This document shows, in pieces, positions 3,612 through 58,675 of a stretch of 64,000 bases of DNA (position 1 is the stretch's first letter; each line of letters opens with the position of its first letter). The translations under genes were made by a program, and so were the position numbers. The notes beneath the pieces were generated by a model, which was not told the origin of the DNA, made no database searches, and saw nothing but the letters and a program-made list of their open reading frames with translations. Origin of the DNA: an uncultured Spirochaetota bacterium (lineage in GTDB: Bacteria; Spirochaetota; Spirochaetia; SZUA-6; Fen-1364); NCBI GenBank assembly GCA_963820525.1, contig CAWGAA010000003.1, positions 736,001 to 800,000 on the forward strand, written 5' to 3'.

Positions 3612-4229
3612 ATGAAACTCAAATACAACGCGCCCGTCTGTTTGAGCTTTTCCCTGATCTCTGCCCTGGTCCTCCTGATAAGCCAGGTCACGGGGGGCAC
3701 CCTGATCTCCACCATGTTCTCGATCTCTCCGTTTGGATTCAACCTCGCCTCGCCGCTTTCGTGGTTTCGCCTCTTCTCCCACGTGATCGGGCACGCCAGC
3801 TGGACCCACCTCATCGGCAACTTCTCCTTCATCCTGCTCATCGGCCCCATCCTGGAGGAGAAGTACCACTCGGGGCCCATCCTCCTCATGATGCTCGTCA
3901 CCGCCCTGGCCACGGGACTGCTGGACCTCTTCATCATGAGGGCCCAGCTCCTCGGGGCGAGCGGCATCGTTTTCATGTTCATTCTTCTGTCCTCCTTCAC
4001 CAATATCCGCTCCAGGGAGATTCCCGTCACCTTCATCCTCATCGTGGTCCTGTATCTGGTGAAGGAGTTCGTCGACGCTCTCACTCCGAGTCCCATCGCC
4101 AATCTCGCCCACATCCTCGGAGGAGTCATCGGGGCAATGTTCGGTTTCCTCTTCAGCAGGAATGACGCGCAGGCAAAGACCCTTCCGCCAAAGCCTGACG
4201 GCACGACGATACAGGGGAGAAAGATATGA
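3612..4229 (+). CDS. Rhomboid family intramembrane serine protease
   Basis: About six TM segments, WFRLFSHVIGH..WTHLIGN, catalytic GASG and AHILGG. Confidence 0.88.
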   Translation: MKLKYNAPVCLSFSLISALVLLISQVTGGTLISTMFSISPFGFNLASPLSWFRLFSHVIGHASWTHLIGNFSFILLIGPILEEKYHSGPILLMMLVTALATGLLDLFIMRAQLLGASGIVFMFILLSSFTNIRSREIPVTFILIVVLYLVKEFVDALTPSPIANLAHILGGVIGAMFGFLFSRNDAQAKTLPPKPDGTTIQGRKI

Positions 4230-6264: not shown

Positions 6265-6350
6265 ACGCCGGCGCTTCGGTGCATGTGATGCGGCCTGTTG
6301 AGCCTGCCGCTTTTGTGCTACATTCATTGGTGCAACCTCGAAGGATCCGT

Positions 6351-7493
6351 ATGAAGCGCAGAAGAACTGCTTTTGTTTTCATCCTGACGCTCGGGACGCT
6401 CCTCCCCTGGCGGCTTGCCGCCTGGGACGGCGCTTTCTTCGACCTTTTCCAGATCCCCTTCTCCGCCCGGGAAGCGGCGCTGGGGGGGGTCCACGCGGCC
6501 CTGGCCGACGATCTGACCACCCTGGTGAGCAATCCCGCCGGGTTCCGCTCCGCCGGCCCGGAGTTCTCCCTCGCTGAAATGACCTTCAGCATCTACGATT
6601 CGGCTCCTTCGCTGCTCGACGAGGTGATCACGAGCCAGCCCAGCACCACCCCGGATCTCCGCCGCGCGACCATGAACCTCATGGGGCCCCTTTTCATCGG
6701 CTACGTGGGCGATGGGCTGGGTTTCGGCCTTTTCAGCAGCACCAACGTCCGCACGTGGACCTGGGGGGCGTATCCAGCCGGCCGCTCGGTGATCCAGCAG
6801 AACCTCGTGGTGGTGGCCGGATATTCGTTTCGAATCCCGTTCCCCGAGGAGTGGCAGAGCACCCTCGACCTGGGCTTCACGATCCCCGTATTCGTCACGG
6901 CAAGAAGCGACACCGCGAAGGATGTCCGCGGGATATTCACTTCCTCCATTACCCCTCCCGCCGTGGTTGCCGACCAGCCCTTCACCATGGCGGAGGGAGT
7001 GAGCGCGGAGTTCGGGATTCTGTACTCCTACGACAATGTGTTCTCCGTGGGGATAGCGGCGCGGGACCTGGCCATTGTCTCGACGAACTCCTACCCATCC
7101 CTCGTCTCGTTTCTCGCGGGCGGTCTTCCCGATACGCGCAACACCCCCCTGCCCATGGACATATCGGCGGGGTTCAAATGGAGCCCGCCCATCAAGAATC
7201 TTCTCCGTTCCATCGATGGGCTCAGTCTCATGGCCGATTATCACGATATCTTCGATTTCGTCTTCTATCCGGAGGGGGCGCGAAATCCTTTCCTGCACAT
7301 CGGAATCGGCCTTGAGATGCAGATCCTGCAGATCGTGAAGCTGCGCGCCGGCTTTTACCAGTGCCTGCCCAGCGGAGGAATCGAGCTGGATCTTTCCCTG
7401 TTCAAGCTGAACGTGGCCGTATTCGGCAGGGAATTGACGAGCCGGCCCTGGGGGTACCCCGTGTACGGGTATATGATCGGGGTGAGATTCTAG
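6351..7493 (+). CDS. Outer-membrane beta-barrel protein, FadL/PorV/UPF0164-like
   Basis: Signal peptide; N-terminal SAREAALGG..AALADD.....NPAG hatch motif; amphipathic strands; C-terminal YMIGVRF beta-signal. Extended -10 TGcTACATT at 6316-6324. Confidence 0.65.
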   Translation: MKRRRTAFVFILTLGTLLPWRLAAWDGAFFDLFQIPFSAREAALGGVHAALADDLTTLVSNPAGFRSAGPEFSLAEMTFSIYDSAPSLLDEVITSQPSTTPDLRRATMNLMGPLFIGYVGDGLGFGLFSSTNVRTWTWGAYPAGRSVIQQNLVVVAGYSFRIPFPEEWQSTLDLGFTIPVFVTARSDTAKDVRGIFTSSITPPAVVADQPFTMAEGVSAEFGILYSYDNVFSVGIAARDLAIVSTNSYPSLVSFLAGGLPDTRNTPLPMDISAGFKWSPPIKNLLRSIDGLSLMADYHDIFDFVFYPEGARNPFLHIGIGLEMQILQIVKLRAGFYQCLPSGGIELDLSLFKLNVAVFGRELTSRPWGYPVYGYMIGVRF

Positions 7494-7524
7494 GTCAGTG
7501 CAGGCCAAACGAATGCGCCGAACG

Positions 7525-8208
7525 ATGAAGATTTTCGCGACCTTGACGGTCGCCCTCCTCACGGCAACGCCGGCGGCATGGACGCAGGAGCGGGCCGCAT
7601 CCGATGGGCTCATGCGAAAAATGGCCGCCCTGGTCCTGACGCACAACCCCATCCTCCTGTCGCAGAGCCGGCTCATCGAAGAGGGCCGGCGCATCGTCGA
7701 GCCGGGAGACGGATTCGCGATCCCGGGGATGACCCTCGGCGCGGGGCTTGGTATCTGGAACCCGTACACGAACTCCTTCGCCGTCACCCCCTCCGTGACC
7801 TTTGGTTTGAGCTTCTCCTTCAGCGATCCGACCCGGGGGCTGAACGTCCTGAAGATCAAGGAGGAGAAGGAGCTGGCCAAGCAGCAATGGGAGACGGCGA
7901 AGAACACGACGCTGGCCCAGCTCTTCTCCAAGATCCGCGACATCCAGAAGCTGAAGAGCCAGGGGAGGAACCTCGCCTCCCTGAAGAAGTACCTCGAGGA
8001 TTACAGCAGCGTTGCCCAGAGCCAGAGGATCGAGCAGGCAATCGGTCCCGACAAGCTCTGGGAGCTGAAGGAGCGGCTTACGAATCTCGATATTGACCTC
8101 CAGACCCTGGACGGCCAGCTTGAAACGACGATGCTGGAAACGGCCATGAGCCTCGGTGGGGACGCGTGGGAAGACCTGCTCCAGCTCCTCCGCGAGCTCG
8201 ACGGGTGA
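7525..8208 (+). CDS. Secreted protein resembling a single TolC/OEP repeat (half-TolC)
   Basis: Signal peptide (ATPAAWT). VLTHNPIL helix, two amphipathic strands (PGMTLGAGLGIW, PSVTFGLSFSF), then long coiled-coil helices ending AMSLGG. Stop overlaps the wzc GTG. Alternative start at 7498. Confidence 0.55.
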   Translation: MKIFATLTVALLTATPAAWTQERAASDGLMRKMAALVLTHNPILLSQSRLIEEGRRIVEPGDGFAIPGMTLGAGLGIWNPYTNSFAVTPSVTFGLSFSFSDPTRGLNVLKIKEEKELAKQQWETAKNTTLAQLFSKIRDIQKLKSQGRNLASLKKYLEDYSSVAQSQRIEQAIGPDKLWELKERLTNLDIDLQTLDGQLETTMLETAMSLGGDAWEDLLQLLRELDG

Positions 8209-10361
8209 GCGCGCCGGTCGGGGAGGACGGAAGAGCTTTGGCTGACGGCGCGAAGGACAGGAGGAGACTCGAGGATTTCTGGACCATCGTCTGGCAGCGG
8301 AAGTGGATCGTCGGCCTGGCCGTGCTCGCCACTCTGGCCGCCGTCTACATCGGCAACTCCCTGGCGACTCCCGCCTACGAGGCATCCGCCACCCTCCATA
8401 TCAAGGAGCAGATGCCCTCCGTCCTGGGCGAAAGCCTCTACAGCACGGGATTCTCGGATCTCTCCCCCCTGGAGGAGATCAACACGCAGATGGAGATCCT
8501 CAAGAGCCGCAGCATGCTGGAAGAGGTGATAGCCAAGCTGGGGCTCGTGGAGGCGCTGGCGCCCGTAAACAAGGGGCTCTCCCAGAGCGAGAGGCTGCAA
8601 TCTACCATCGACATCCTCAAGAAGCGGATTTCTGTCGGCAATGTCACAAGCACGCGGCTCATCAGGGTGTCGGTGCGTTCGCGGGATCCCGAGCAGGCGA
8701 TGAGAATCGCCAATGCGATCTCCGAGGCCTTCATAGAGAGGAACGTCGAGTCGAAACGCAGCGAGGCGAACGCGGTTTTGGCTTTCGTGAGCGACCAGGT
8801 GAACCAAGTGAGCGCCAAGCTGGACAGGGCGGAAGAGGACCTGCTGAAATACAAGCAGGCGCAGCGGATAACGGATCTCCCCGAGGAGGCCAGGCTCAAG
8901 CTCGACAGGCTTGCCGAGCTTGAAAGCTCCTACCAGCAGGCGAATATCGAGCGGCAGATCCTGGCCACCCGAAACGCCGGCGCACAGAAGCTCTCGCCGA
9001 CGGACGATCTCCTCGCCGGCATTTCGAACAACCCGTCCGTGAAGGCGATGCAGGACCAGCTCACGGGGCTGGAGGGACGCCTGACGGAACTGGGACCGGA
9101 AGACCCGAAAGCCGCGGGACTGAAGGGCCGGATCGAGTCCCTGCGGAAGGACATCCAGACGGAAATCGAAAAGGCGCTTGCGCCGGGCAAAGGCACGTCC
9201 GTCAATTCGGTGCTCCAGCTCCAGCTGGCCGAATACAAGTCGCAGGATATAATCCTCGCCGCCCAGCAGGAGGCGCTGCGGAAGCTGATCGATGCCAACG
9301 AAGGGGAGATAAACAGGCTGTCCGCCCAGGATATAAGCCTCGCCAGGCTGGAGCGGGCCCGAAGGATAAACGACGAGCTGTACTCCGCCTTGATGAAAGC
9401 GAAAAACGAGGCGCAGATCGAAGCGATCAGCCAGATCGGGAACATCGACGTCATCGATCCGGCCGTGACGCCCCTCTCTCCCGTGAGCCCGCGAAAGCAG
9501 GAGAACTTCATCGTCGGCTTTCTGCTCAGCCTCCTGATGGGAGTATGCCTCACCTTCCTCCTGGACTACTTCGACAACACGGTGAAGACGGAGGAAGAGG
9601 TCAAGAAGCTGCTGGAGATCCCGCTCCTGGGATTCATCCCCCGGTTCCATCAGAACGGCTCCCTGTCCGGCGGCAGGAAGTCCCGGGAAACCTCCAGAAA
9701 CCTCTCCCTCTTCACCCGGGACGCGCCGAAGTCCTCGATTTCCGAGGCTTTTCGCCTGCTGCGGACCAACCTCTCTTTCATCGAGCTGGACAGGGGGCTG
9801 AAGACGATCGCCGTGACGAGCGCCGTGCCCGGCGAGGGCAAGACCACGATCGTCGCCAACCTCGCCGTCGCCCTGGCCGCCCAGGAAGAGAGGGTGCTGG
9901 TCATGGACGCCGATTTCCGCGCCCCCGCCGTCCACAAGATGTTCGGTTTCCCCCATGCTCCCGGCTTCACCAACATCCTCACGGACCGCCTGAGCCCCCA
10001 GAGCCTGATCAGGCGGGTCAGCGGGGTTCCGAACCTGAGCATCATCACGAGCGGCCCCATCCCCCCGAACCCTGCGGAGATCATCGGCTCCTCGCGGATG
10101 AAGGAGCTGATCGATGAGCTGCGCGAGGGTTTTGATCGGGTCATCTTCGATGCGCCCCCGGTCCTCGGGGCCACGGACGCCGTGGTATTGGCTTCCCGCG
10201 TGGACGGCACGCTGCTGGTCCTCAGGACGGGAAGAATCGACAGGAGGGCAATCACGAGGATGAGGGAGATCCTCGGAAACACGAGAACCAACATCCTCGG
10301 GGGAATCCTCAACGGGGTCGACGTGGGGGACAAGCGATACAGCTACTACGGGTACTACTAA
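8205..10361 (+). CDS. wzc: Polysaccharide co-polymerase / tyrosine autokinase (PCP-2a)
   Basis: Wzz-type N-terminal TM, long periplasmic coiled coil, P..PVSP + TM2, EAFRLLRTN, Walker A GEGKT, DADFR, FDAPP, and C-terminal Tyr cluster YSYYGYY. Confidence 0.93.
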   Translation: MSAPVGEDGRALADGAKDRRRLEDFWTIVWQRKWIVGLAVLATLAAVYIGNSLATPAYEASATLHIKEQMPSVLGESLYSTGFSDLSPLEEINTQMEILKSRSMLEEVIAKLGLVEALAPVNKGLSQSERLQSTIDILKKRISVGNVTSTRLIRVSVRSRDPEQAMRIANAISEAFIERNVESKRSEANAVLAFVSDQVNQVSAKLDRAEEDLLKYKQAQRITDLPEEARLKLDRLAELESSYQQANIERQILATRNAGAQKLSPTDDLLAGISNNPSVKAMQDQLTGLEGRLTELGPEDPKAAGLKGRIESLRKDIQTEIEKALAPGKGTSVNSVLQLQLAEYKSQDIILAAQQEALRKLIDANEGEINRLSAQDISLARLERARRINDELYSALMKAKNEAQIEAISQIGNIDVIDPAVTPLSPVSPRKQENFIVGFLLSLLMGVCLTFLLDYFDNTVKTEEEVKKLLEIPLLGFIPRFHQNGSLSGGRKSRETSRNLSLFTRDAPKSSISEAFRLLRTNLSFIELDRGLKTIAVTSAVPGEGKTTIVANLAVALAAQEERVLVMDADFRAPAVHKMFGFPHAPGFTNILTDRLSPQSLIRRVSGVPNLSIITSGPIPPNPAEIIGSSRMKELIDELREGFDRVIFDAPPVLGATDAVVLASRVDGTLLVLRTGRIDRRAITRMREILGNTRTNILGGILNGVDVGDKRYSYYGYY

Positions 10362-10433: not shown

Positions 10434-11600
10434 CTACCCGCCGCCTTCGCCGCGAAGGACGAATCGCACAGCTTCCCCCAACCCTGCCGCTGCGGAGGCG
10501 AGAGCGTTCCCGGAAATCAGATCTCCAGCCCTGCGGCCCATTCTCCCCGCCTTCGACGGATCATCGATGAATAGCTTCATCCTCTCGGCGAGCTCCTCCG
10601 GCTGATGGGGATCGAAAACAATCCCGTTTTCTCCCTCGATGACCAGTTCGGACGCGCCCGCCCATCGGGAGCAGAGAACGGGCTTCGAAAAGGCCATGGC
10701 TTCCAGCACGGCCATTCCCCAGACATCCGTAAGAGTCGGGAATACGAAGACGTCGGCGAAATCGAAATATGACCCCAGCCGCCCGTATTCGACCCACCCC
10801 GCCCACGTGATGAGATCCTGCACGGCGAGCCTTCGAGAGCGCTCTTCGAGCTCTGCGCGCTGCGGCCCATCTCCGACCATCAGCACGGTGAAATCCCTCC
10901 GGCCCTGCGCCGCAAGAATCGCGCAGGCGTCCAGGAGGAACGAGAGGCCTTTGAGATGCGCTATCCGCCCGACGTACAGGAAAACGGGACGCCGCAAGCC
11001 GACAAGCCCCGATCCCGCCGGCGCCCCTACCGTGGACAGGGCGGCGGCGCACGGGACGAGATACGGCCTGCTGAAGACCCTGCCTTCTTCCGCTCGAAGC
11101 ACGTCGATCAGGTATTTGCGGCCCATGCGCGAATTCGTGATGAAAGCGTCCGCCCGCCTGGCCATGGCTTTCCTCATCAGCAGGCGGGTTTTCTTGCGCA
11201 TCGAATCGACGCCCGGGGAACTGCCGTCATACACGACGATCACTCTGAACCGAAACACCATCCGCAGAACAAGGGAGAGGGCGCTCCACGCATTGAAGCC
11301 GCTTGCGAAAATGACGCGGGGCCTGAAGCGCGCGATGTGGTACATGGCCCGCACCGGCAAGAGCGTCATGACGAGGTTGTGACTCCTGTCCGCCTTCTTG
11401 AGCGTGAGATTCCTGGCCCTCCCGACAAACCGATGCGAGAAAGATCCGGCATACTGCGCCGGGATGACGGTGCGCAGGCATGAGAAAACGGTCGTGCGGG
11501 GAAACAGCCGGGAAAACTCCGCCAGGATCGGATACCAGTAATACCCGCGCGCCATGAAGGGAATAAGCCACGCGACTGCGGGGCTCTCGCTTCTTTTCAT
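10434..11600 (-). CDS. Glycosyltransferase family 4 (GT-B)
   Basis: LYVGRIAHLKG, VGDGPQR, DVFVFPT..DVWGMAVLEAMA. Start MKRSES has a GGAG RBS and overlaps the wzx stop. Confidence 0.9.
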   Translation of the reverse strand: MKRSESPAVAWLIPFMARGYYWYPILAEFSRLFPRTTVFSCLRTVIPAQYAGSFSHRFVGRARNLTLKKADRSHNLVMTLLPVRAMYHIARFRPRVIFASGFNAWSALSLVLRMVFRFRVIVVYDGSSPGVDSMRKKTRLLMRKAMARRADAFITNSRMGRKYLIDVLRAEEGRVFSRPYLVPCAAALSTVGAPAGSGLVGLRRPVFLYVGRIAHLKGLSFLLDACAILAAQGRRDFTVLMVGDGPQRAELEERSRRLAVQDLITWAGWVEYGRLGSYFDFADVFVFPTLTDVWGMAVLEAMAFSKPVLCSRWAGASELVIEGENGIVFDPHQPEELAERMKLFIDDPSKAGRMGRRAGDLISGNALASAAAGLGEAVRFVLRGEGGG

Positions 11601-12904
11601 ATTCTCCTGTTTACATGGCGCCGCAGAAACAGGAAATACGCGATTCCCGTGACGATGCTCGCCAGAACCATGCCCGCGGCGGCGCCATTGGTTCTGAAAG
11701 CATACACGAGGTACAGCCCGATCGTCAGCGTGAACAACGCCCCCACGGTCTGGGACCAGAATAGAGAGCTGGTTCGCTGAACCGATTTCAAGCCAATGAC
11801 GAGTCCCTGCGTCACGGCCCCCGCCAGGGTCGCAGCCCAGAGGTAGGGGAGCAATGCAAGGAAGCCGCCGTAGTAGGGGCGGCGGTAGATGAATACCACC
11901 ATCCATTTCTGTGCCAGGAGAAGGAATGCGAGGTACGCGCAGGAAAGGGCGACGTTTGCCGCAATGATCCTTCGAAGGATCGTCCCGAGGGAACGATCGC
12001 CGAGGCTGGCATGCTTGCGGGAAACAAGCGGCAGGAAGAGCATGCTCAACGCCGTCAGGCTCTGCTGCAGGGGTCGGAGGAAATTCTGCATCGCCTGGTA
12101 TGCGCCGGCTTGTTCCAGGCCGGCAAAAGACCCCACGAGAGGGATATAGAGGGTGCCGCTCATCCAGAAGACGAACGCGGAGCCGACAATCCATTTCCCG
12201 TACTGCCAGTGCTCCGACGCCACACTCGCGATGGCTCGCGATGCCGTGCGCCAGATCATCTCCTTCAGCCTCATGCCGAGGGAATAGAAAATCACGACGC
12301 CCGCCGCGACGCTGGCTGCCGCCATTGAGAGAAACGCGGAGAAAGTCGACGCCATCCTCCTGTCATGGATCAAAAACAAGGCGCCCAGGAGGACGAGGCA
12401 ATAGAGGAAACTTCCCCGCACGGCGAGATCGGGACGAGTCTGCGCATAGCACGCCGCGCGCAGCAGCCAGTAGAAAAGAATGAATGGCGAAGCGGCGGCA
12501 AGAGCAAGTATGGAGAGCGCCAGCGAGGACCCCGAAGCCTTCTCGACCAGTCCCGCTATCGTCAGCACCACGCTCAAGCCGATGGCCAGCCCGCCGTGAA
12601 GCCAGACGAGAGTGTAGGTATAGCGCCGCATTTCTTCTGCGTGGCGCGAGGGTCCCACGACGTATATCGGGTCCAGGATGAAGGCGTTATGAAAGCCGGA
12701 AATGAAGAGGAAAATCGAGAAGGCGATCGCGTAGATGCCGTACTCGGCGGGAGAAAGCCACCGGGCCAATACGAGGGTGAGGAGGAAGTTGGATCCCGAT
12801 GCGAGGCCCTGATCAAGAACGCTGAACAGGGATTTAACGCCCCACTTCTTCAGGAGAATCCATGCGGAATCGATCAGCCCTCTCAGGCCATGGAGGGAAG
12901 GCAC
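11597..12904 (-). CDS. wzx: Polysaccharide flippase (Wzx/MOP family)
   Basis: About 12 TM segments, DQGLASGSNF..LARWLSPAEYG N-terminus, AGAYQA motif, and location within the polysaccharide cluster. Confidence 0.8.
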   Translation of the reverse strand: MPSLHGLRGLIDSAWILLKKWGVKSLFSVLDQGLASGSNFLLTLVLARWLSPAEYGIYAIAFSIFLFISGFHNAFILDPIYVVGPSRHAEEMRRYTYTLVWLHGGLAIGLSVVLTIAGLVEKASGSSLALSILALAAASPFILFYWLLRAACYAQTRPDLAVRGSFLYCLVLLGALFLIHDRRMASTFSAFLSMAAASVAAGVVIFYSLGMRLKEMIWRTASRAIASVASEHWQYGKWIVGSAFVFWMSGTLYIPLVGSFAGLEQAGAYQAMQNFLRPLQQSLTALSMLFLPLVSRKHASLGDRSLGTILRRIIAANVALSCAYLAFLLLAQKWMVVFIYRRPYYGGFLALLPYLWAATLAGAVTQGLVIGLKSVQRTSSLFWSQTVGALFTLTIGLYLVYAFRTNGAAAGMVLASIVTGIAYFLFLRRHVNRRI

Positions 12905-13797
12905 GCTCCCTCCTTCGCGGCAATGAGATTATTGACGCCTGATGGAACGCGGGGCGGATGGATTGGCGTGCAGTCTTCTCCGTCCCGGCAGCACCAGATG
13001 CGATACCCGTTGCGCGCGAGGAGGGCGAACAGCTCTTCGGGTGTGTACCCGAAGCTGGCATAATTCTCCGGCTCGTATTCGAAGATCCAGACCGGCGCCT
13101 CTTCCACCGGGAGCTTCAAAAGCGATGCCGAGCCGAGAAAAACCATCAATTCCGCACCCTCGACATCGACTTTCACGAGATTGGCTTTTTTCCTCTTCTG
13201 GGCGAAGTAGGTGTCCAGCCGAATCGATTTCACGCGAATGGCCTTCGCCACTTCGCGTCCCGGGAGGCGGACCGTCTTCCTCTTCAGCGCGGAAAAGGTC
13301 GACTCGGCGCATACCTCGAACTCTCCCGTCCCATCGCAATCCGAGACGGCGCACTCCCGCACAAGCACGTTGTCCAGGCCGTTGCTGGCGACGTTGCGCT
13401 TGAGAAGATCGAAAATCCGCGGATTCGGCTCGAAAGCATGGACTTCACCGTCACGCCGGACCGCGCGCGCTCCAAGCAATGTGTATTTCCCGATATGGGC
13501 GCCGACATCGACGAAAGTCATTCCCGGCTTCAGGAACCGCAGGACGAGCTTTTCAGTCTCGGGTTCGGAATAGCCCTGGTAGAAGAGCAGGGAGCCCTGC
13601 CCGTCATTTGCTACGGCAATCGTGAAATGCCCATGGAACGGGAGCAGCCAGGGCTTGCGAAAAAACCTCCACCGGAGCCGCCACAGCAGGCGCCGCCAGA
13701 GGGCTCGAGCGGGATTGCGCCGGAAATCCGAACGTCGGATGAGGCCCCGTGCCAGGAGACGGTATTGCTTGAGGGAGATTCTCGGGAATGATCTCAA
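12883..13797 (-). CDS. FkbM family SAM-dependent methyltransferase
   Basis: FVDVGAHIG, HAFEPNP and KVDVEGAE motifs. Confidence 0.88.
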   Translation of the reverse strand: MRSFPRISLKQYRLLARGLIRRSDFRRNPARALWRRLLWRLRWRFFRKPWLLPFHGHFTIAVANDGQGSLLFYQGYSEPETEKLVLRFLKPGMTFVDVGAHIGKYTLLGARAVRRDGEVHAFEPNPRIFDLLKRNVASNGLDNVLVRECAVSDCDGTGEFEVCAESTFSALKRKTVRLPGREVAKAIRVKSIRLDTYFAQKRKKANLVKVDVEGAELMVFLGSASLLKLPVEEAPVWIFEYEPENYASFGYTPEELFALLARNGYRIWCCRDGEDCTPIHPPRVPSGVNNLIAAKEGACLPSMA

Positions 13798-13927: not shown

Positions 13928-16536
13928 ATGAGAGAGGACCGACACTCCAGGGAGGCGAATTCCATCGCAAGGTCTCAGAGGACCTCCCCAGAATCCTCCG
14001 TTCGCGATCGCAGCGCCAAGAGGTCCGCGCAGTCTCTGCAGCACACGGCGGACGAGATACTCCAATTGCTGGAACACCGGGGGATCCCGTACTGCATCCT
14101 TCACGGCTATCATGAATCGCGGCCCGATCTGGCTTCCGATCTGGACATCGCCATGCACCGCGGGAAAGTGAAAGAGCTTTTCCATCTGCTGTGCGCGCAG
14201 GATACCGCCCGATGCATTCAGATCATCGAATACGGGACCACAGGCTATTGTTTCGTCCTGGAGAACCGGGACGGTCTCGCCGTCCGTTTTCTCCCCTTGG
14301 ATTTCACCACGGAGTATCGCCGCAAAGGGCATGTCTTTTTTTCGTCGGATGAGCTTCTTGCGGATCGGCGCCGCGCGGGACGCTCCTGGATCTCGTCCCC
14401 GTCCGTGGAATTCCTCTACACGCTCGTCAAGAAAACGCTGAAGGGCAATTGTCCCGAGAGACAGCGAAAACGCCTGCAGGCCCTGAGCCTCGAGCTCGGC
14501 GAGGACGCCGCCACAAAAGTACAGCGGCTCTTTGGAAAGAAGCTGGCGGATCGCATCCCCTCCTGGTTGAGCGATGACGGCTCGAGTGCCTTCCAGGAGA
14601 ACCTCCCTCTTCTCCGTCGAGCCCTCCTGCGAAAAACGTTCCCGCTCAGCCCCCTCGCTCTCCTCCGCTACTGGCTGCCGGAGATTGGGCGGCTCTGGCG
14701 GCGAATCCGCCGTCCCACGGGCATGTTCGTCGCTGTTTTCGGGCCCGACGGCGCCGGCAAGAGTACGCTCATCCGGCATCTTTCAGAGCGCGTCAGAAAG
14801 GCTTTCCGAAACAACGATCGTTTTCATCTGCGTCCGGGAATCATGCCGTCGCGATTAGCAGCGATCCCGGCGGATGATCCTCATGGCAGGCCGCCGCAGC
14901 CATGGATTCGCTCCACCCTGAAGATCGCCTATCTCCTCCTGGACTATTCGCTGGGGTACCTCTGGAGAATACGCCCCAGGCTCTCGAGGTCATCCCTGGT
15001 TCTGTTTGACCGCTACTACGATGACCTGATGGTGGACTCACGCCGCTACCGGTATGGCGGACCTCCATGGCTCGTCCGTCTGGCTCGCCGACTCGTTCCC
15101 ACGCCCGATATGTACATGTTCCTGGACGTTTCCGAAGATGAGCTTGAAGCCAGAAAAAGGGAGATGTCTCGCGAGGAATTGCGGCGGCTGCGGGGGGCAT
15201 ACCGGAAGCTGGCTTTGCAGCTTCCAAACGCCATCCTCCTGGACGGGTCTCTCCCGGCGGCGACGGTGGCCCGCCATGCAAGCGAAATGGTCCTCCATTA
15301 CCTGAGAGATCGGTGTCGAAGGAGCTTTCGACGGCGGGGCGGCGGCGACCGCCGCGCCATGACAAGCCTTCTTCTGCAGATGCTGGGCGATCCTGCTGGG
15401 GGCGATTCGACGGATCAAAGACCGGGCAGGGGGTACGCGCTCCTCCCCCTGGATGATGGAAGGGGCTTGCTTCTTCCCCTCGAGCGCGGGCGCACCGCAT
15501 CGAGTGCCCTGGGGCTTTACAGCGCCCAGAGGCCGAGGGCGAGGGCGGTGAAGGCCCTCCTCGGCGCGGGAATGAGGTGCGGCGTCGCTCAGCCCTTCCT
15601 CCGGAGGATCGGGCCGGACGAAGGCTCCGTCGTGTTTCCCCTGCTCGAGCACCTGGCGCAGATTCTTGGACGGAGCGACCTGAGCTTCGCCATGTCGCTC
15701 GGCACACCGGGCCCCGATCAAAAGCCCGTCATCCAGGGGACCGCTCCGGATGGCAGCGTGCTGGCCTACGTCAAAGTAGGATGGAATCGGGCGACGAAAG
15801 ATCTGGTGCAGAGAGAAGCTGAGTTCCTGACCCGGATGAAGAGCATCGACATCCACTCCTGCGTCATACCGGAGCCGTATCATGCGGGCTCGTGGAAAAA
15901 TCGGTTCCTCCTCGTCCAATTGGCGCCTCAAAAGAAGGCGCTTCCCGCGCCGCGGGAGATGACCCAAAAGCATGTGTCGATTTGCCAGGAATTGGCGGGC
16001 ATCCATACCCGTCGGCAGCCGCTCACGGAGGCCGCATTCTGGTTGCGCCTCGTCCAACGGGTCCGGCGGATCCCCAACGCCTGCCTCCGTCACCTCATTT
16101 CGCGCGGAATGCGCCGCCTGGAAGCACAGCTTGGCGGACTTCGGCTCGCTTTTCATCTCTGCCATGGAGATTTCGCTCCCTGGAACATGCTATCGTTGAA
16201 TGGGACGCTGTTCCTCTTCGACTGGGAGTACGCGGATTGGGAAGGGCCGCCTGGATACGACCTGTTCCATTTCAACTTCCAGACCAGGCCCTGCTCCAGA
16301 GACAGCCGCCCGCGCGGATCCGAAAGGAGCTTGGAAAAAACGGGACGTGCGCGAGCTGGATTGGGCGCTATCTGCAGGCACTGGGAATGGGAACGGAGCT
16401 TCTCGAGCCCCTCCTTTTGCTTTACCTGCTGGACCGATTGACCTTCCGCGCCCTTGACGAGCGTGAGAGCTTCTCGACGCTGCTCCGTCTTTCAACGATG
16501 GTCCACCTGTGTCTGGAGGAGGAAGAGAGGCCGTGA
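13928..16536 (+). CDS. Three-domain protein: nucleotidyltransferase-like + thymidylate-kinase-like P-loop + APH/choline-kinase-like phosphotransferase; one-base frameshift near 16288
   Basis: IPYCILHG....SDLDI and LPLDF (NTase fold); VAVFGPDGAGKST and FDRYYDD (dTMP kinase-like); YVKVG, HGDFAPWN, FDWE, YDLFH (APH-like). The -1 frame continues QRQPP...LYLLDR to TGA 16536, which overlaps the next GTG start. Confidence 0.7.
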
Positions 16537-17768
16537 TACAGCGCCTGAGGGTCCTGGCATCGGCATACGCGTGCGAGCCGGAAAAGGGATCCGAGCCGGG
16601 CATCGGTTGGAACCTGGTACTGCAAATAAGCCGCTTCAACGAAGTCTGGGTCATCACGCGGAAATCAAACGAGGATGCCATTCGCCGGGCGGGACATCCC
16701 TTGCCACATGTCCACTGGTCATTCTACGATCTGCCCGTCTGGGCGCGTTTCTGGAAAAGGGGGCAGCGGGGAGTCCATCTCTATTACCACCTCTGGCAGG
16801 CAGGCGCATATCTCCAGGCCAGACGGCTGTCCAGGAGAGTCCGCTTCGATCTCGCTCACCACGTCACCTTCGGGAACTACTGGATGCCCAGCCTTCTGTG
16901 GCTTCTTCCCGTGCCCTTCGTCTGGGGGCCGGTCGGCGGCGGCGAGTCCGCCCCTGCCGCACTGTGGAAGTCCTTCGGGGCGCGGGCGAGGCTTTTCGAG
17001 CGCCTGAGGGCCGCCGCGCGCTCGCTCGGCGAGAGCAATCCCCTGGTCAGGCTCGGCGCCCGGCGAGCCAGCCTTGCGCTCGCCGCTACTCCCGAGACGG
17101 CGGCACGTCTGGCGCGGCTGGGGTCCAGAGAGGTGAAAACCTTCGGAAACACGGGCCTGGGGGAGGAGGAGATCGAGCGGCTGGGCTCCGTGCCCGTTCG
17201 GGACGACGGACCTCTTCGGCTGGTGAGCATCGGGCGGCTTCTCCCGTGGAAGGGCTTCCATCTGGGGTTGGAGGCCTTCGCCAGGCTGCTCGCCGCTTTT
17301 CCCGGGAGCACCTATGGGTTGATCGGCGACGGGCCCGAACGTCCCCTGCTGGAAGCCCTCTCACGGCGATTGGCAATTGCCGGCGCCGTCACTTTTCGGG
17401 GACGGCTTCCCCGGCCGCGCGTCCTGGAATCGATGGCGGACTACGACGTCCTGGTCCATCCCAGCCTGCACGATTCGGGAGGCTGGGTCTGCCTGGAGGC
17501 AATGGCCGCGGGACGTCCCGTGATCTGCCTCGATCTGGGCGGGCCGGCGCAGCAGGTGTCCGAAGAGACGGGCTTCGCGGTGCCCGCCTTTTCACGCGAG
17601 CAGGCGGTCGAAGGATTGGCGCGCGCCATGAGGAGCCTCGCTTCCGACGCGGAAATGAGGAAACGGATGGGTGAATCCGCCAGGAAAAGGGCGGCGGAGC
17701 GTTTCGCTTGGAGCAGGAAAGGGGAGCGGATGAGAGAACTGTATGCACGCGCCCGGGAGAGGATCTAG
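16533..17768 (+). CDS. Glycosyltransferase family 4
   Basis: SAYACEP..GSEPGIGW, PFVWGPVGG, GRLLPWKG, HPSLHDSGGWVCLEAMAAG. GGAGGAGG RBS. Confidence 0.9.
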   Translation: MIQRLRVLASAYACEPEKGSEPGIGWNLVLQISRFNEVWVITRKSNEDAIRRAGHPLPHVHWSFYDLPVWARFWKRGQRGVHLYYHLWQAGAYLQARRLSRRVRFDLAHHVTFGNYWMPSLLWLLPVPFVWGPVGGGESAPAALWKSFGARARLFERLRAAARSLGESNPLVRLGARRASLALAATPETAARLARLGSREVKTFGNTGLGEEEIERLGSVPVRDDGPLRLVSIGRLLPWKGFHLGLEAFARLLAAFPGSTYGLIGDGPERPLLEALSRRLAIAGAVTFRGRLPRPRVLESMADYDVLVHPSLHDSGGWVCLEAMAAGRPVICLDLGGPAQQVSEETGFAVPAFSREQAVEGLARAMRSLASDAEMRKRMGESARKRAAERFAWSRKGERMRELYARARERI

Positions 17769-19244
17769 GTGCCACGGGCTTCTCTCCTGGGCGTCCCGCC
17801 CAGGATCATCATATACCGCGGCGTCATTGCGGGCGCTGTGCTCGTTACCGGAATGCTCACGGGACTCTCCGTCGTGGACACCCCCTGGATCGCCTGGGCG
17901 CTGGCGGCAGTCATGGCGGCTGCCGTGCTCTTCATTGCGCCCGCCCACATCCGCATCGGTGCTGTCGTGCTGGCGGCGGCATGTTCGAGACTCCTCGTCG
18001 CCACAGGGGTTGTCTCCAACTTTGCGAACTTCTTCCACTTTCCCCTGGCGCTCGGTGTCGCCCTCATCTCCGCCATTGAATCGACGACAAAGTCGCGCCT
18101 CAAGCGGCCGCTTGAAGTGGCGTCAATCTCTCTCCTCGGGGTCTCCCTTGTTAGCTGGCTCATCAATCGAGGAGAGCTCATCCGCCCCTTCCTGGATTGG
18201 CTTGTTTTCGTGGAGCCCCTTTTGATCGTGTACGCCATCGTGAACATGCCCCCGGATCACTCCAAGGTGAAGGCGCTGTGGATGCTGGTCCTCCTTATCC
18301 CCTTTGCACAACTGATTCTGGCTGCATACCAGGCGCTGACCCTGGGTCTGGGTGATCCCGTTCAGGGATTCTTCGTCGACATGGGCGCCGGCGCCCACGT
18401 TGCGGGAGCCGTCTCCTTGATGGGGACCCTGACCTGCGTTTCCCGGGCCCTTTCCGTCGAGAAAGCGACCTCACGGCTCTCCTGGCTGCTGGGCGCGAGC
18501 ACGCTCTTTCTGGTTGCAGTCGGCGCGGACGCAAAACAGGTCATCATCGCCTTCCTGCCGGCGCTGGTCATGCTCCTTCTCATTTCAACTCGCATCCGTC
18601 TCTCCAGGGCCATTTTTGCCCTCCCGCTCCTGGCCGTGCTCGTGCTGGGCGCGTTTTCCTACTACCGTCCTTTGCAGATGGTTCTGGACTGGGCTCTGAT
18701 CAGCCGAGGCGCCCTGGGAAAAGCCCAGGCATTCTCCATGATAGCGGGAAAGCTCTCCGAGAGCGGGGTCCGATGGCTTCTGGGGCTGGGTCCGGGCAAC
18801 TCTGTGAGTCGGGTAGCGCTGATGGGGCTGGAAACAATGGTGAAGCTCGACTCGCCCGTGAGGCTGCTCGGTCTCGGCCCGGCGGCGGTAACGCGAGAGC
18901 TCATGACCCAGACCGCGGCCAACTGGCTGTACTCGTCTTCCTCCGTCTGGAGCTTCGTATCGAGCTGGCTGGCGCTCTTGGGAGATCTGGGCCTGGCCGG
19001 CATCGGCATCTTTCTCTGGACATTCTGGAAATTATGGGTCAGCTTGCGCGCTCGCCGCGGATGGAAGGCGGCCACCGCAAGGGCGGTATTGCTCATGATG
19101 ATCATTCTCGCGTGCCTCTACAGCTGGCTCGAGGAGCCGGGATTCACCTTGATCGCCGCGCTCATCGTGGGGCTCGGCTCGATCGACACCGCATCACAAG
19201 AAATCCTTCCGGAGAAACAACCGGAGAAAAGCCCCGCGCACTGA
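17769..19244 (+). CDS. Polytopic membrane protein, probable Wzy-type polysaccharide polymerase
   Basis: About 11-12 TM segments, a large loop with LLGLGPG, then LLGDLGLAG (O-antigen ligase/Wzy-like pattern). It is the only polymerase candidate in the locus. Confidence 0.6.
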   Translation: MPRASLLGVPPRIIIYRGVIAGAVLVTGMLTGLSVVDTPWIAWALAAVMAAAVLFIAPAHIRIGAVVLAAACSRLLVATGVVSNFANFFHFPLALGVALISAIESTTKSRLKRPLEVASISLLGVSLVSWLINRGELIRPFLDWLVFVEPLLIVYAIVNMPPDHSKVKALWMLVLLIPFAQLILAAYQALTLGLGDPVQGFFVDMGAGAHVAGAVSLMGTLTCVSRALSVEKATSRLSWLLGASTLFLVAVGADAKQVIIAFLPALVMLLLISTRIRLSRAIFALPLLAVLVLGAFSYYRPLQMVLDWALISRGALGKAQAFSMIAGKLSESGVRWLLGLGPGNSVSRVALMGLETMVKLDSPVRLLGLGPAAVTRELMTQTAANWLYSSSSVWSFVSSWLALLGDLGLAGIGIFLWTFWKLWVSLRARRGWKAATARAVLLMMIILACLYSWLEEPGFTLIAALIVGLGSIDTASQEILPEKQPEKSPAH

Positions 19245-19254
19245 GGAGACGACA

Positions 19255-19905
19255 TTGCAGAAAAGAGTGCAGTGGATACTGCGTCACGTGAAAGGCCCCC
19301 GCGTTCTCGACATCGGGTGCGCCGGCTACCTCCCCGATGCCTCATCGGCCTGGTGGCTCCATGGCCGGCTCTACAGCCTTTTCCCCCAAGTGGTCGGAAT
19401 CGATTACGATGAGAAAATCGTCGGGGACCTGGCGGCCATGGGCTACCAGCGCATCCACCATGCCGACGCCCAGAGTTTCCAGCTCGCGGAGCGGTTCGAT
19501 ACCATTGTGGCCGGAGAGGTGATCGAGCACCTGCCAAACCCTGGAGTCTTCCTGGAGCGGGCGCGACATCATCTTGCTCCCGGCGGCAGGCTGATCGTCA
19601 CAACGCCCTCGGTCTTCTCGCTCGCTCACTTCCTCTATGCGCTGGTGCATTTTCCGCATACCTGCCCGAATCCAGGGCATACGGGCTGGTTCTGCCTGGA
19701 GACGCTTGCGCGCCTGGCTGCACTCAACGGCTTTCGGATCCGCTCCTGGGACCTGCTGGAAGATTACCGCTTCGATGTCCCGGCGCCGCTGTATCGCCTT
19801 TTCATTGCCGCGCTCTCCATCACGCGTCCGCTGATCCCGAAACGCCTGCGGGCAAACACTCTGGCCTTCATTCTGGAGCCCAATGAAGATACTCCTCGTC
19901 CATAA
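19255..19905 (+). CDS. Class I SAM-dependent methyltransferase
   Basis: VLDIGCAG, FDTIVAGEVIEHL, LAPGGRLIVTTP. GAGGAG RBS before the TTG start. Confidence 0.85.
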   Translation: MQKRVQWILRHVKGPRVLDIGCAGYLPDASSAWWLHGRLYSLFPQVVGIDYDEKIVGDLAAMGYQRIHHADAQSFQLAERFDTIVAGEVIEHLPNPGVFLERARHHLAPGGRLIVTTPSVFSLAHFLYALVHFPHTCPNPGHTGWFCLETLARLAALNGFRIRSWDLLEDYRFDVPAPLYRLFIAALSITRPLIPKRLRANTLAFILEPNEDTPRP

Positions 19906-21052
19906 TCACTACCTCCAGTCCGGCGGCGAAGACGCCGTTTTCGCCGCGGAAAGCGCCCTCCTCGACCGTCACGGCCATCAGGTGGCGCGCTATGTGGAGG
20001 ACAACCGGCGGATCGAGAAGATCGGCCGGTCGGCGGCGGCCGTGCGTGCCGTATGGTCTTCCCCTGCGAAGCGGAGAGTGCTTCGCCTCCTCCGCCGCGA
20101 GCTGCCGGATGTGGCTCATTTCCACAATACCTTCCCCCTCATCTCCCCGTCGGCATACTACGCGTGCCGCGAGACCAGTACCCCCGTGATCCAGACTCTC
20201 CACAACTTCAGGCTCCTCTGCCCGAACGCTCTTTTCCTGCGTAATGGACGTGTATGCGAAGACTGCATGGGCCGGCCTCTGCCCTGGCCGGGAATCGTCC
20301 ATGCCTGCTACCGGAAGTCCCTTCTCCAGAGCGCCGGCGTGGCCGCGATTCTCGGGCTGCATCGCCTGATCGGTACCTGGAACGGCCGTGTTGACCTCTA
20401 TATCGCGCTGAGCGAGTTCGCCAGGGAGAAGTTCGTCATGAACGGCGTCCCGGCGGAGAAGATCGCCGTGAAGCCGAATTTCGTGCATCCCGACCCCGGG
20501 GGGAACGCGGGCGGCGGATCCTACGCGCTTTTCGCGGGAAGGCTCTCCGAGGAGAAGGGGATCGAGACGCTGCTCGATGCATGGCGAACGCTGAAGAACA
20601 TAGAGCTTGCCGTCGCCGGTGACGGCCCCCTCATGGGGAGAGTTCGCGCGCTGGCTGAATCCCACCCCGAGACGGGAATCCGGGCATACGGCCGGCTCCC
20701 GCATGAGGAGGTGCTCCGGCTGATGAAGAGCGCCCGCTTCCTCGTATGCCCGTCTCTGTGCTACGAGAGCTTTCCCATGGTGATTGCCGAAGCCTTCGCC
20801 TGCGGGCTGCCGGTCGTTGCGACCGACATCGGGGCGGTCGCGGAGCTGGTGGTTGACCGGCGCACGGGAAGGCGCTTCCGCGCGGGTGATCCCTCAAGCC
20901 TGGCGGAAGCGGTGGCATGGCTGTGGTCGCACCCCGAGCAGGCGCGGGGCATGGGAAGGGAAGCGCGTCGGGAGTTCGAGACGAAGTACACCGCGGAGAG
21001 GAACTACGAGCTTCTGCTCGATATCTATTCCAGGGCGATGAGAAGCCGCTGA
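19883..21052 (+). CDS. Glycosyltransferase family 4
   Basis: HNHYLQSGGED, HFHN.FP, GRLSEEKG, PSLCYESFPMVIAEAFA. Confidence 0.92.
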   Translation: MKILLVHNHYLQSGGEDAVFAAESALLDRHGHQVARYVEDNRRIEKIGRSAAAVRAVWSSPAKRRVLRLLRRELPDVAHFHNTFPLISPSAYYACRETSTPVIQTLHNFRLLCPNALFLRNGRVCEDCMGRPLPWPGIVHACYRKSLLQSAGVAAILGLHRLIGTWNGRVDLYIALSEFAREKFVMNGVPAEKIAVKPNFVHPDPGGNAGGGSYALFAGRLSEEKGIETLLDAWRTLKNIELAVAGDGPLMGRVRALAESHPETGIRAYGRLPHEEVLRLMKSARFLVCPSLCYESFPMVIAEAFACGLPVVATDIGAVAELVVDRRTGRRFRAGDPSSLAEAVAWLWSHPEQARGMGREARREFETKYTAERNYELLLDIYSRAMRSR

Positions 21053-21068: not shown

Positions 21069-21857
21069 ATGACGGACGCGAGCGCAGGCACCCTGAGAGT
21101 CGACATCCTCGGATGCGCCGTGGACCGTCTCACGATGCAGACCGCACTCGAGAAGCTCGAGCGATTGATCGCCTCCCCGGGCAAGCACCAGGTGATCGTG
21201 CTTCCCGTCAACTCCGTCATGACCGCCCGAAGGGACGCGGGATTCCGAAAGATCTGCAACGCCTCATCCCTTGTCCTTCCCGACGGCGTGCCCGTTCTCT
21301 GGGCATCGCGGCTCCTGGGTCGGCCAATCCCCGGCCGTGTGGCGGGCTCGGACCTGTTCTGGGAGCTTTCCCGCCTCGCCTCCCGAAGGGGCTGGTCATG
21401 CTACCTTCTGGGCTCGCGCGCCGAGGTTCTCGAAGCGCTGGAGGCAAGGCTGCGCGAGCGGTTCCCGGGGCTCATCGTGTCCGGCCGGCATGCTCCTCCC
21501 CTGCGCCACGAGTTTCCCGCCGCGGTGACCGACGACATCATCGCGCGCATCAACGCGGCGCATCCCGACATCCTCTGGGTCGGCATCGGCGCCCCCAAAC
21601 AGGAGAGGTGGATCCACGCCAACCTGGAAAAGGTGAATGCGAAGCTTGCCATCGGCGTCGGTGCCGCATTCGATCTGTGCAGCGGCTCCATGAAGCGCGC
21701 TCCCCGCTGGATGCAGCGCTGCGGGCTGGAATGGCTCTACAGGTTCATCAAGGAGCCCCGAAGGCTGTTCAGGCGCTACTTCATCGAAGCGATGCCGTTC
21801 CTTCCCCTGGTCCTGGCACGGCGGTTGAACGATCTGTTCACGGGGCATGGAGTCTGA
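21069..21857 (+). CDS. WecB/TagA/CpsF family glycosyltransferase (GT26)
   Basis: PDGVPVLW, RVAGSDL, VGIGAPKQERW, GVGAAFD, RAPRWMQRCGLEWLYR. Confidence 0.93.
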   Translation: MTDASAGTLRVDILGCAVDRLTMQTALEKLERLIASPGKHQVIVLPVNSVMTARRDAGFRKICNASSLVLPDGVPVLWASRLLGRPIPGRVAGSDLFWELSRLASRRGWSCYLLGSRAEVLEALEARLRERFPGLIVSGRHAPPLRHEFPAAVTDDIIARINAAHPDILWVGIGAPKQERWIHANLEKVNAKLAIGVGAAFDLCSGSMKRAPRWMQRCGLEWLYRFIKEPRRLFRRYFIEAMPFLPLVLARRLNDLFTGHGV

Positions 21858-21867
21858 TACCGCAATG

Positions 21868-21876
21868 TGCTATACT
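21868..21876 (+). promoter_or_regulatory. Extended -10 element for the 21919-26128 genes
   Basis: TGcTATACT about 40 nt upstream of a GGGGAG RBS and ATG 21919. Confidence 0.55.
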
Positions 21877-21918
21877 AGGGGGTACGCATTCATTATCCGA
21901 AGGAATTACGGGGAGAAC

Positions 21919-22827
21919 ATGGCAAGAGCACGCCTCCATCCCTACCTCCTCATCCTTATGCTCACCGTGCCCGTCGCCGCGGCTGGCTGCCTGGAAATCG
22001 GCGGGGAGTTCCAGCTCGGGAATATGGGCTTCACCTCGAGCCGATCCAGCTCGGACACCTCGTTCAAGGGGGGGGATTACTTCTGGGGCGGCTCCCTGTA
22101 CATTACCCAGGGCGTGATGGACAATTTCCAGGTCGAGGGGGGGGTATTCAGGGACCTGATCCTCGGCAACGTCGTCTATTCGCTTCTCCAGTACAGGACG
22201 GACTACTTCAGCCTGGGGATCGGCCCATTCCTCGGCCTGTTCAACTCCAGTTCCGTTTTCATGAAATCGGGGATTTCAACCCTCGTGCGGCTGGAGCTTC
22301 CGGGCGTGGCATACGTCTCGCTGCGCACGGATGGCACCCTGGGAAACGCCGTGAGCACCGAGGGGGACTACAGCGAGCAGCGAAGCGACATCGCGCTGGG
22401 CTTCTACGTTCCCAACGCCATCTGCACTCTGAGCCTCTCCTCCCTGGAGTTCGTTTCGATGCAGGGAACCGCGCAGGTGGTGGACAGCCTGACCGAGTAC
22501 TCGCTCAAGGTCGTCGTCTTCGAGAAGAATGTGCCCTTCCGGCTCGACTTCGACTTCGCCTACCAGGTGCTGCTCAAGAAATACATCGACGGGGCTGCCA
22601 ACCCGACCCACGGCCTCACTTCCTTCATCCTGGGAGTGGGGCTTGATCTCCTCTTCTCAAAGGAGTTTTCATTCCTCCTCGACATGGAGACCAGCGTCTA
22701 TACGGTGGGAACCAGCCAGCTCTCCGCCTTCTCGGACGTCGGCTTCGCTCCCTTCCTCTTCCGGGCGTCGAGCGGATTCAGGTTGATCCTCGGATCTCCC
22801 TCCCAGACAGACCAGGAATCTCCCTAG
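21919..22827 (+). CDS. Exported hypothetical protein, probable outer-membrane beta-barrel
   Basis: Signal peptide (possible AAGC lipobox) and many aromatic/Gly amphipathic strands, ending FRASSGFRLIL. Confidence 0.55.
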   Translation: MARARLHPYLLILMLTVPVAAAGCLEIGGEFQLGNMGFTSSRSSSDTSFKGGDYFWGGSLYITQGVMDNFQVEGGVFRDLILGNVVYSLLQYRTDYFSLGIGPFLGLFNSSSVFMKSGISTLVRLELPGVAYVSLRTDGTLGNAVSTEGDYSEQRSDIALGFYVPNAICTLSLSSLEFVSMQGTAQVVDSLTEYSLKVVVFEKNVPFRLDFDFAYQVLLKKYIDGAANPTHGLTSFILGVGLDLLFSKEFSFLLDMETSVYTVGTSQLSAFSDVGFAPFLFRASSGFRLILGSPSQTDQESP

Positions 22828-58671: not shown

Positions 58672-58675
58672 TCGC

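Follow-up and report, generated by a model that had tools for sequence, protein, structure and literature searches.

We have analysed a 64,000-nucleotide stretch of DNA, called the window in the following, from the genome of an uncultured Spirochaetota bacterium (5.05 Mb in 4 contigs, 96.7% complete; the window is G000:C3:736001-800000). It contains a complete Wzx/Wzy polysaccharide locus without a gene for an outer-membrane polysaccharide export (OPX) protein such as Wza. At the head of this locus stands a pair of genes, one for a small secreted protein that resembles half of a TolC protomer, here called half-TolC, and one for the tyrosine autokinase Wzc, a polysaccharide copolymerase of class 2a (PCP-2a). 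An earlier note on this DNA had proposed that half-TolC, perhaps together with a barrel protein encoded upstream, serves Wzc as a Wza-independent translocon. The relatives of the organism carry the labels Spirochaetaceae or Spirochaetia, and near-identical DNA is present in freshwater-sediment and wetland metagenomes.

Results

The operon consists of three open reading frames (ORFs) on the forward strand, which form a tight unit with two possible starts each: 6279/6351-7493 for a FadL-like outer-membrane barrel, 7498/7525-8208 for half-TolC and 8166/8205-10361 for Wzc. The GC content at third codon positions (GC3) is 0.79-0.86 for the three ORFs, which is of the coding type, with half-TolC at 0.86. 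The stop codon of the barrel gene (TAG, 7491-7493) lies 4-31 nt before the possible starts of half-TolC. The stop codon of half-TolC in turn (TGA, 8206-8208) overlaps an in-frame GTG of wzc at 8205, just as the earlier note had described. Another possible start of wzc is an in-frame TTG at 8238, which is preceded by GGAGG. The half-TolC gene is thus co-operonic with, and in all likelihood translationally coupled to, a full-length PCP-2a gene.

The half-TolC protein (7525..8208, + strand) has 227 residues, beginning with a signal peptide that has no lipobox cysteine, and its mature part comprises about 205 residues. It has one match to the Pfam family OEP (PF02321), between residues 67-211 and positions 38-187 of the 187 in the profile, with 27.2 bits (the cut-off is 22 bits) and an E-value of 3.9e-6. 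In the same genome, every full-length TolC shows two such matches, while the 240-aa frame of half-TolC shows one. Among the 54 members of the half-TolC family that were aligned, 31 match OEP, the best of them with an E-value of 9.5e-15. Using hhalign, the family could be aligned to the N-terminal repeat (residues 20-221) of a 468-aa TolC of the same genome, with a probability of 86% and an E-value of 4.8e-6. NCBIfam has no model for the protein, and a search of the PDB sequences with the family profile returned no TolC chain at E<=1, which means that the link to the outer-membrane factor (OMF) channels is carried by Pfam, hhalign and the fold.

The alignment of 54 sequences was also the basis of an AlphaFold (AF2) model of half-TolC, which has a predicted local distance difference test score (pLDDT) of 91.4. 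The model contains the helices 16-40 and 42-55, the strands 68-79 and 84-96, and the long helices 102-169 (68 residues) and 175-226 (52 residues), that is, a single beta-hairpin (68-96) followed by a single helical hairpin (102-226). The first two helices are separated by a kink at N41-P42, where both residues are invariant, and an LGG motif is found at residues 210-212. In the strands, hydrophobic residues alternate with small or polar ones, a pattern that is kept across the family. The tip of the helical hairpin has the sequence G-P-D-K-L-W (about residues 174-179), of which P175-D176-K177-L178-W179 is invariant in the close homologues. The layout that had been read from the letters, namely a helix with NP, two amphipathic strands and a long helical hairpin, as in one TolC/OEP repeat, is therefore reproduced by the model and by Pfam.

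When the model was compared with the PDB by Foldseek, the first ~38 rows were all OMF channels (OprM, OprJ/OprN entries, VceC, TolC, CmeC, CusC, SilC and MtrE). The TM-scores are 0.5-0.62 relative to the query (TMq) and about 0.3 relative to the target (TMt), the latter value meaning that the model covers about half of each OMF protein. With VIA-align, an OprM chain could be aligned to 208 of the 227 residues (Z 9.9, root-mean-square deviation 8.1), and coverage of the whole model was obtained with OMF chains only. The likeness to OEP thus holds in both sequence and fold. It should be pointed out that OMF protomers are defined by two tandem repeats, in about 430-490 aa, while Pfam finds a single match here and the model shows one beta-hairpin and one helical hairpin. 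We conclude that the product of 7525-8208 is secreted and amounts to one structural repeat of an OMF (TolC/OprM) protomer and that, lacking this defining feature, it stands outside the two-repeat TolC family.

The downstream gene (8205..10361, + strand) encodes a PCP-2a tyrosine autokinase Wzc of 718 aa, counted from the GTG at 8205, with matches to Wzz, GNVR and AAA_31 in Pfam and to Wzc and eps_fam in NCBIfam. All the hallmarks of the class are present: a Wzz/GNVR periplasmic domain of about 380 aa between two transmembrane segments (35-53 and 435-453), a P-loop bacterial tyrosine kinase domain, and a C-terminal tyrosine cluster with the tail RYSYYGYY. The solved E. coli Wzc chains (720-738 aa) are matched with an E-value of 1e-52.

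We now turn to the distribution of half-TolC. The 15 close homologues all have 227-258 aa, and the family found by phmmer at E<=1e-3 comprises 49 representatives, nearly all of 198-300 aa, the exceptions being a few shorter fragments and one outlier of 1316 aa; no full-length TolC is among them. In the source databases, the homologues are named 'hypothetical protein' or 'outer membrane protein TolC'. Gene neighbourhoods were surveyed within the phylum, in 92 genomes of the order, 8 of which carry the half-TolC gene, and in six metagenome loci. Seven of the eight carriers have the gene directly 5′ of wzc, as do 4 of the 6 metagenome loci, three of these showing the order barrel, half-TolC, wzc and one showing half-TolC and wzc without the barrel. 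One of the three (L052) is probably a duplicate of the G072 locus. The linkage to wzc, on which the earlier proposal depended, is thus seen well beyond the window, and such a tight and conserved coupling argues for a shared function.

The same picture is obtained starting from wzc. Counting as close those orthologues of the Wzc periplasmic domain with at least 47% identity, there are 10 copies in 9 genomes, of which seven have half-TolC adjacent to them, two start at a contig end, and one, the second copy of G064, has a FadL-like barrel instead. In G064, two wzc copies lie 13 kb apart in one super-locus (L057, G064:C5:608000-624000; L036), where one follows half-TolC, the other follows the FadL-like barrel, and each has its own set of glycosyltransferases. 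In G069, the wzc adjacent to half-TolC (G069:C28:111688-113098, L038) is split into two frames by an in-frame TGA or a frameshift, which reflects either loss of the gene's function or a fault in the assembly.

Some members of the family deviate from the simple arrangement. On the metagenome contig L056 (586-1919), there are two tandem half-TolC paralogues with overlapping stop and start, the first of which (223 aa) is of a type with a shortened hairpin, while the hairpin of the second is complete. A pair of this kind suggests hetero-oligomers in which the two non-identical repeats of TolC are mimicked. In one metagenome locus, half-TolC is divergent from the priming transferase and has an aberrant 3′ end. 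In L055 (2424-3908), the half-TolC frame continues for ~280 residues of unrelated sequence past about residue 215, for which a fusion, a frameshift or chimerism of the contig may be responsible.

Outside the order, a sample of 401 genomes of the phylum gave only weak partial matches, inside frames of the size of a full-length TolC. For ten distant family members a single name was found, 'TolC family protein', from a metagenome-assembled genome (MAG) of Bacillota, and a profile search of a set of 5.8 billion sequences yielded no additional members. A lead from a protein atlas is given by clusters of 217-235-aa proteins from Pseudomonadota and Bacteroidota (score 0.98), in one of which 52% have OEP.

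The first gene of the operon (6351..7493, + strand) encodes a protein of 380 aa from the ATG at 6351, the ORF being open from the GTG at 6279. Its AF2 model (pLDDT 86.9) has 14 strands, and the N-terminal segment carries SAREAALGG...NPAGF. The top structural matches by Foldseek are FadL, TodX, TbuX, CymD and PorV, with E-values of 3e-8 to 1e-5 and TM-scores of 0.4-0.5. The strand count and these matches agree with the FadL/TodX/PorV family, of which a 14-stranded barrel with an N-terminal hatch is typical, and they support the label 'FadL-like' given in the earlier note. At the sequence level, no Pfam family is matched, Toluene_X included, and the PorV/PorQ N-terminal motif of NCBIfam is matched weakly (28 bits for PorV, the cut-off being 90). 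Toluene_X (PF03349) is found in 1 of the 120 barrel homologues listed.

Concerning the OPX component, neither 7525-8208 nor any other part of the window has a match to Poly_export (PF02563). The single SLBB match inside the window, a weak one at 41282-41428, belongs to a NuoF-like Fe-S protein. Half-TolC thus has none of the Poly_export and SLBB domain architecture by which OPX proteins such as Wza are recognised. The description of the module as Wza-less is accordingly correct for the locus but not for the genome, which has three OPX genes on contig C1, where all Poly_export matches of the genome that exceed the cut-off are located.

The remaining genes that had been named for this locus, Wzx, a Wzy candidate, a priming transferase and a Wzi-like protein, are all present. 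Downstream of wzc, three genes are on the reverse strand: a family 4 (GT4) glycosyltransferase (10434..11590), a Wzx-type flippase (11597..12904; Pfam Polysacc_synt_3, at least 8 hydrophobic segments) and an FkbM-family methyltransferase (12883..13797; Pfam). The ORF of the GT4 enzyme is open to 12194 and its 5′ part overlaps wzx, while the Pfam match (Glycos_transf_1) is to residues 402-556 of this long ORF; the true start is probably near 11590. The other genes are on the forward strand. The first of them (13928..16441) encodes a protein of 837 aa with a P-loop domain, which is thymidylate-kinase-like, and an APH-type phosphotransferase domain (Pfam, NCBIfam), and this protein may phosphorylate a sugar or the polymer. 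It is followed by a GT4 glycosyltransferase (16509..17768; Pfam), the Wzy-type polymerase candidate (17769..19244), which has 12-13 hydrophobic segments and no family match, an S-adenosylmethionine-dependent methyltransferase (19255..19905; Pfam), a further GT4 glycosyltransferase (19883..21052; Pfam) and a WecG/TagA-family glycosyltransferase (21069..21857; Pfam).

Next comes orf326 (21847..22827), encoding a lipoprotein-like, beta-rich protein of 326 aa with an AAGC lipobox-like motif. It matches nothing in Pfam or NCBIfam, and most of the related loci have a conserved counterpart; in G029, its homologue (L065 6100-6954) adjoins a FadL-like barrel, 30 kb from the half-TolC and wzc pair. The priming enzyme, a polyprenyl-phosphate hexose-1-phosphate transferase (22879..24471), matches Pfam Bac_transf with an E-value of 3e-57. 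The last gene (24494..26128) encodes a secreted protein of 544 aa, which recurs in related loci. We call it Wzi-like, as the nearest protein-atlas clusters, from Spirochaetota, are named Wzi family (score 0.99); the match to Pfam Caps_assemb_Wzi (E 0.5, 9.8 bits, cut-off 30.1) is a lead and does not establish membership. A Pfam search of the locus (1-36 kb of the window) gave no genes for membrane-fusion proteins, for ATP-binding cassette (ABC), resistance-nodulation-division (RND) or major facilitator superfamily pumps, or for efflux and type I secretion in general. A Wzb phosphatase is missing from the locus as well, in agreement with the earlier note, and the only match to a low-molecular-weight protein tyrosine phosphatase, the type of Wzb, in the genome is on contig C1.

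Two further observations can be made on the surroundings. Just 5′ of the operon, a secreted protein is encoded at 4226-5653 (+), with weak matches to DUF4139 and to the MuiA 'mucoidy inhibitor' family; no counterpart of it was found in the related loci. At 57826-59755 (-), there is an island of low GC content (48%, compared to about 63%). It encodes a restriction endonuclease similar to DpnII (281 aa) and an N6-adenine methyltransferase of the D12 class (359 aa, DPPY motif), which suggests a type II restriction-modification system gained by transfer.

Discussion

The architecture of half-TolC invites comparison with the OMF channels (TolC, OprM, CusC, VceC, CmeC and MtrE), with which it shares the succession of a helix, two membrane strands, and a long descending and a returning helix. 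The differences are that half-TolC has one repeat (227 aa) where these have two (about 430-490 aa), that it is devoid of the segments of the equatorial domain, and that its neighbour is a PCP-2a Wzc instead of a membrane-fusion protein with a pump of the ABC, RND or major facilitator superfamily type. With one repeat per subunit, at least six copies, and not three, would be required for a barrel like that of TolC, and the copy number is in principle free.

On this basis, the following mechanism can be formulated. Several copies of half-TolC would assemble into a TolC-like alpha/beta-barrel, in which the beta-hairpins would span the outer membrane. Six copies would reproduce the 12 strands of TolC, while eight would match Wzc, which is an octamer. 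The helices would form a tunnel of roughly 100 Å that could reach the periplasmic crown of Wzc, and the contact would be made by the conserved hairpin tip. The long helices of TolC have 67 residues, and the 68-residue helix of half-TolC thus makes a tunnel of TolC length plausible. The product of Wzy would in this way exit via a duct of the OMF type and not through an OPX protein of the Wza type. That copies of half-TolC form such a duct on Wzc, with the polymer exiting independently of OPX, is in our judgement an even bet. To the more specific proposal, in which a duct of 6-8 single-repeat OMF subunits docks tip-to-crown on Wzc and represents an undescribed class of OPX-free translocon, a living half-TolC from before the duplication, we assign a probability of about 0.45. 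A co-fold of four copies (residues 28-227), run without controls, gave a median score of 0.12 against a mark of 0.42, which is evidence neither way.

Several observations weigh against this proposal. The strongest hints against a simple 'small TolC' come from the family itself, in which the hairpin region is shortened or missing in 11 of the 54 members and the tandem pair of L056 has one paralogue of each type, so that spanning of the membrane may not be universal. In addition, the helical hairpin alone resembles by VIA-align also those of periplasmic adaptor proteins (HlyD, LipC, MacA), with Z about 10; unrelated long coiled hairpins reach similar values, and re-ranking did not discriminate between them. 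The locus offers other candidates for an outer-membrane component, namely the FadL-like barrel, the Wzi-like protein and orf326. The eighth carrier of half-TolC in the order (G048, 68% complete) has no wzc adjacent to it; GT4 genes follow, and the contig ends 1.6 kb further on. As to OPX, the three genes of the genome each lie in another polysaccharide locus of C1, but the one coding for a 301-aa protein (C1:882k) adjoins sugar transferases and has no PCP detected in the surrounding 20 kb, and it could thus serve this Wzc in trans. Finally, the relatives without OPX calls are incomplete MAGs, and even the OPX genes of this genome score only ~30 bits with the model from Pfam.

The alternative that survives best is a composite translocon. 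Here, half-TolC would be a periplasmic conduit or adaptor on Wzc, similar in function to a Class-3 OPX protein, and the passage through the outer membrane would be provided or completed by a separate beta-barrel of the locus, which could be the FadL-like barrel, the Wzi-like protein or orf326. Composites of OPX and beta-barrel have been described in Myxococcus (PMC9603273, 10.1101/2022.04.04.486985, PMC12819527, each as far as the accessible text goes). The reduced hairpins of some family members and the recurrence of the Wzi-like gene and orf326 in related loci fit this scenario, while the half-TolC of the window speaks against it by retaining a well-formed and conserved amphipathic hairpin.

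The genomic context of the FadL-like barrel can be read in both directions. The operon begins with it in the window as well as in L035/L052, L051 and L053, and it adjoins wzc or the half-TolC and wzc pair in G072, G064 and G033. The second wzc of G064 has it directly 5′ and no half-TolC, while in G033 it is directly 3′ of wzc. On the other hand, four of the six relatives' loci with the pair (L036, L037, L039, L041) show no barrel in the roughly 10 kb on either side of it; three of those four genomes have one on the same contig, at a distance of 11-30 kb. The barrel is 3 kb from half-TolC in G069 and 11 kb from wzc in G046. Its family (164 proteins) is much wider than that of half-TolC, being present in 33 of the 92 genomes of the order, mostly without this wzc, and the members that share a contig with wzc are the closest ones (at least 43% identity). 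A second copy in G033 (45% identity) is on another contig. Six more distant members were examined, of which four are in tandem paralogue pairs, and none has wzc, wzx or a priming transferase nearby; one of these loci (L062) has a GT4 gene 2 kb away and another (L065) is that with the orf326 homologue. Since the link to wzc is confined to the closest members of a wide family, the barrel is a recruited accessory in one sub-clade and not a constant partner, and of the earlier suggestion of an upstream FadL-like barrel serving Wzc the fold is supported but the link does not extend beyond this sub-clade. Moreover, the plugged 14-stranded FadL fold is not known to act as a pore for polysaccharides. 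Taken together, we regard the composite translocon as unlikely, though it deserves to be kept in mind.

Another alternative is that Wzc exports via one of the three remote OPX proteins, while half-TolC has another role, for example in assisting or regulating Wzc as its partner, or as a duct for an unrelated substrate. The existence of the three genes and the 301-aa OPX with no PCP detected in the 20 kb around it are in favour of this, and an OPX is likewise found in G072, the nearest of the relatives in which the operon is complete. However, two of the three genes have their own adjacent PCPs, as the one for an 842-aa multi-SLBB protein is beside two Wzz-type PCPs and a flippase, and that for a 589-aa protein is 3 kb from a GNVR protein. 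The tight coupling of half-TolC to wzc and the lack of efflux or type I secretion genes in the locus also make an unrelated role less attractive. As a separate observation, the 842-aa OPX locus (L042, G000:C1:906000-925900) directly adjoins a full-length TolC and an ABC exporter.

The relatives provide further information on this point. At E<=0.01, G072 is the only one of seven half-TolC relatives with a Poly_export match; none was found in G064 (89% complete), G069 (74%), G029 (96%), G046 (83%), G048 (68%) and G025 (83%). With two of the OPX proteins of this genome as queries, nothing was found in the five genomes tried, and the matches to SLBB and SLBB_2 in the relatives were to one domain each, in frames of widely varying size, which makes them uninformative for OPX. 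Across the order, Poly_export matches occur in 51 of the 92 genomes, in 2 of the 8 carriers of half-TolC against 49 of the 84 non-carriers; as the genomes are related and the numbers small, this difference is a pattern and not a test. In G056, G072 and G074, PCPs that are less closely related (29-36% identity) share a contig with Poly_export matches, at distances of 2-20 kb. The search of the whole genome for OPX thus went against the proposal in finding three genes elsewhere, and with it in finding them in polysaccharide loci of their own, two with PCPs; that six of the seven relatives gave no Poly_export match also agrees with the proposal. We consider the use of a remote OPX by Wzc to be improbable, and more so than the composite.

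That the gene is a decaying, functionless fragment of a full-length TolC gene can be dismissed as very improbable on account of its conservation: only one of the two OEP repeats is present, but the length is kept at ~200-300 aa in most of the 49 representatives and within the narrow range of the 15 close homologues, the gene has a GC3 of 0.86, a confident model and conserved motifs, and no second half follows downstream, wzc beginning at the stop codon.

The proposed duct of half-TolC subunits may also be compared with the Wza-Wzc translocon, which serves the group 1 capsule and colanic acid in E. coli. The Wzc of the inner membrane is of the same kind and length, and the gene order of barrel, outer-membrane component and wzc parallels the order wzi-wza-(wzb)-wzc of E. 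coli. However, the gene at the position of wza is without Poly_export and SLBB, and wzb is absent from the locus. Any pore in the outer membrane would here be a beta-barrel, while that of Wza is an alpha-helical barrel according to the available part of 10.1101/2022.04.04.486985. The Myxococcus xanthus systems of Class-3 OPX and a beta-barrel (Wzp/GfcD-type) are similar in belonging to the Wzx/Wzy pathway, in having no helix barrel of the Wza type and in having a separate beta-barrel gene, but they keep an OPX protein, while this locus encodes none and its barrel, of 14 strands, is FadL-like. With FadL, TodX and PorV, the upstream barrel shares the 14 strands and the N-terminal NPAGF segment; it differs from them in the missing Toluene_X match, in TM-scores of only 0.4-0.5 and in its place beside wzc.

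In the open literature, no description was found of a single-repeat protein of the TolC type or of a TolC-type partner of Wzc, subscription-only papers being outside this coverage. By term search, none of the words TolC, OEP, FadL and spirochaetes occurs in PMC9603273 and PMC12819527, two key papers on OPX classes. As far as can be seen from the portions of the literature available, the described diderm Wzx/Wzy systems all rely on OPX for crossing the outer membrane, be it on its own (Wza) or together with a beta-barrel.

Conclusion

From the above, we propose a Wzx/Wzy-Wzc pathway in which an OMF-type outer component would take the place of OPX; the small half-TolC protein at the position of the usual exporter may mark an undescribed export route through the outer membrane. 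With a small family from uncultured wetland and sediment spirochaetes, the practical importance is limited for now. If the proposal is true, the consistent pairing of a PCP-2a with a TolC-type protein, in genomes for which the search gave no OPX, would add a second solution to the outer-membrane step, and it would link the ducts of tripartite efflux and type I secretion with capsule export, which have so far been treated separately. Half-TolC would also be an experimentally tractable single-repeat OMF, bearing on the origin of the TolC fold by duplication and on the determinants of channel stoichiometry.

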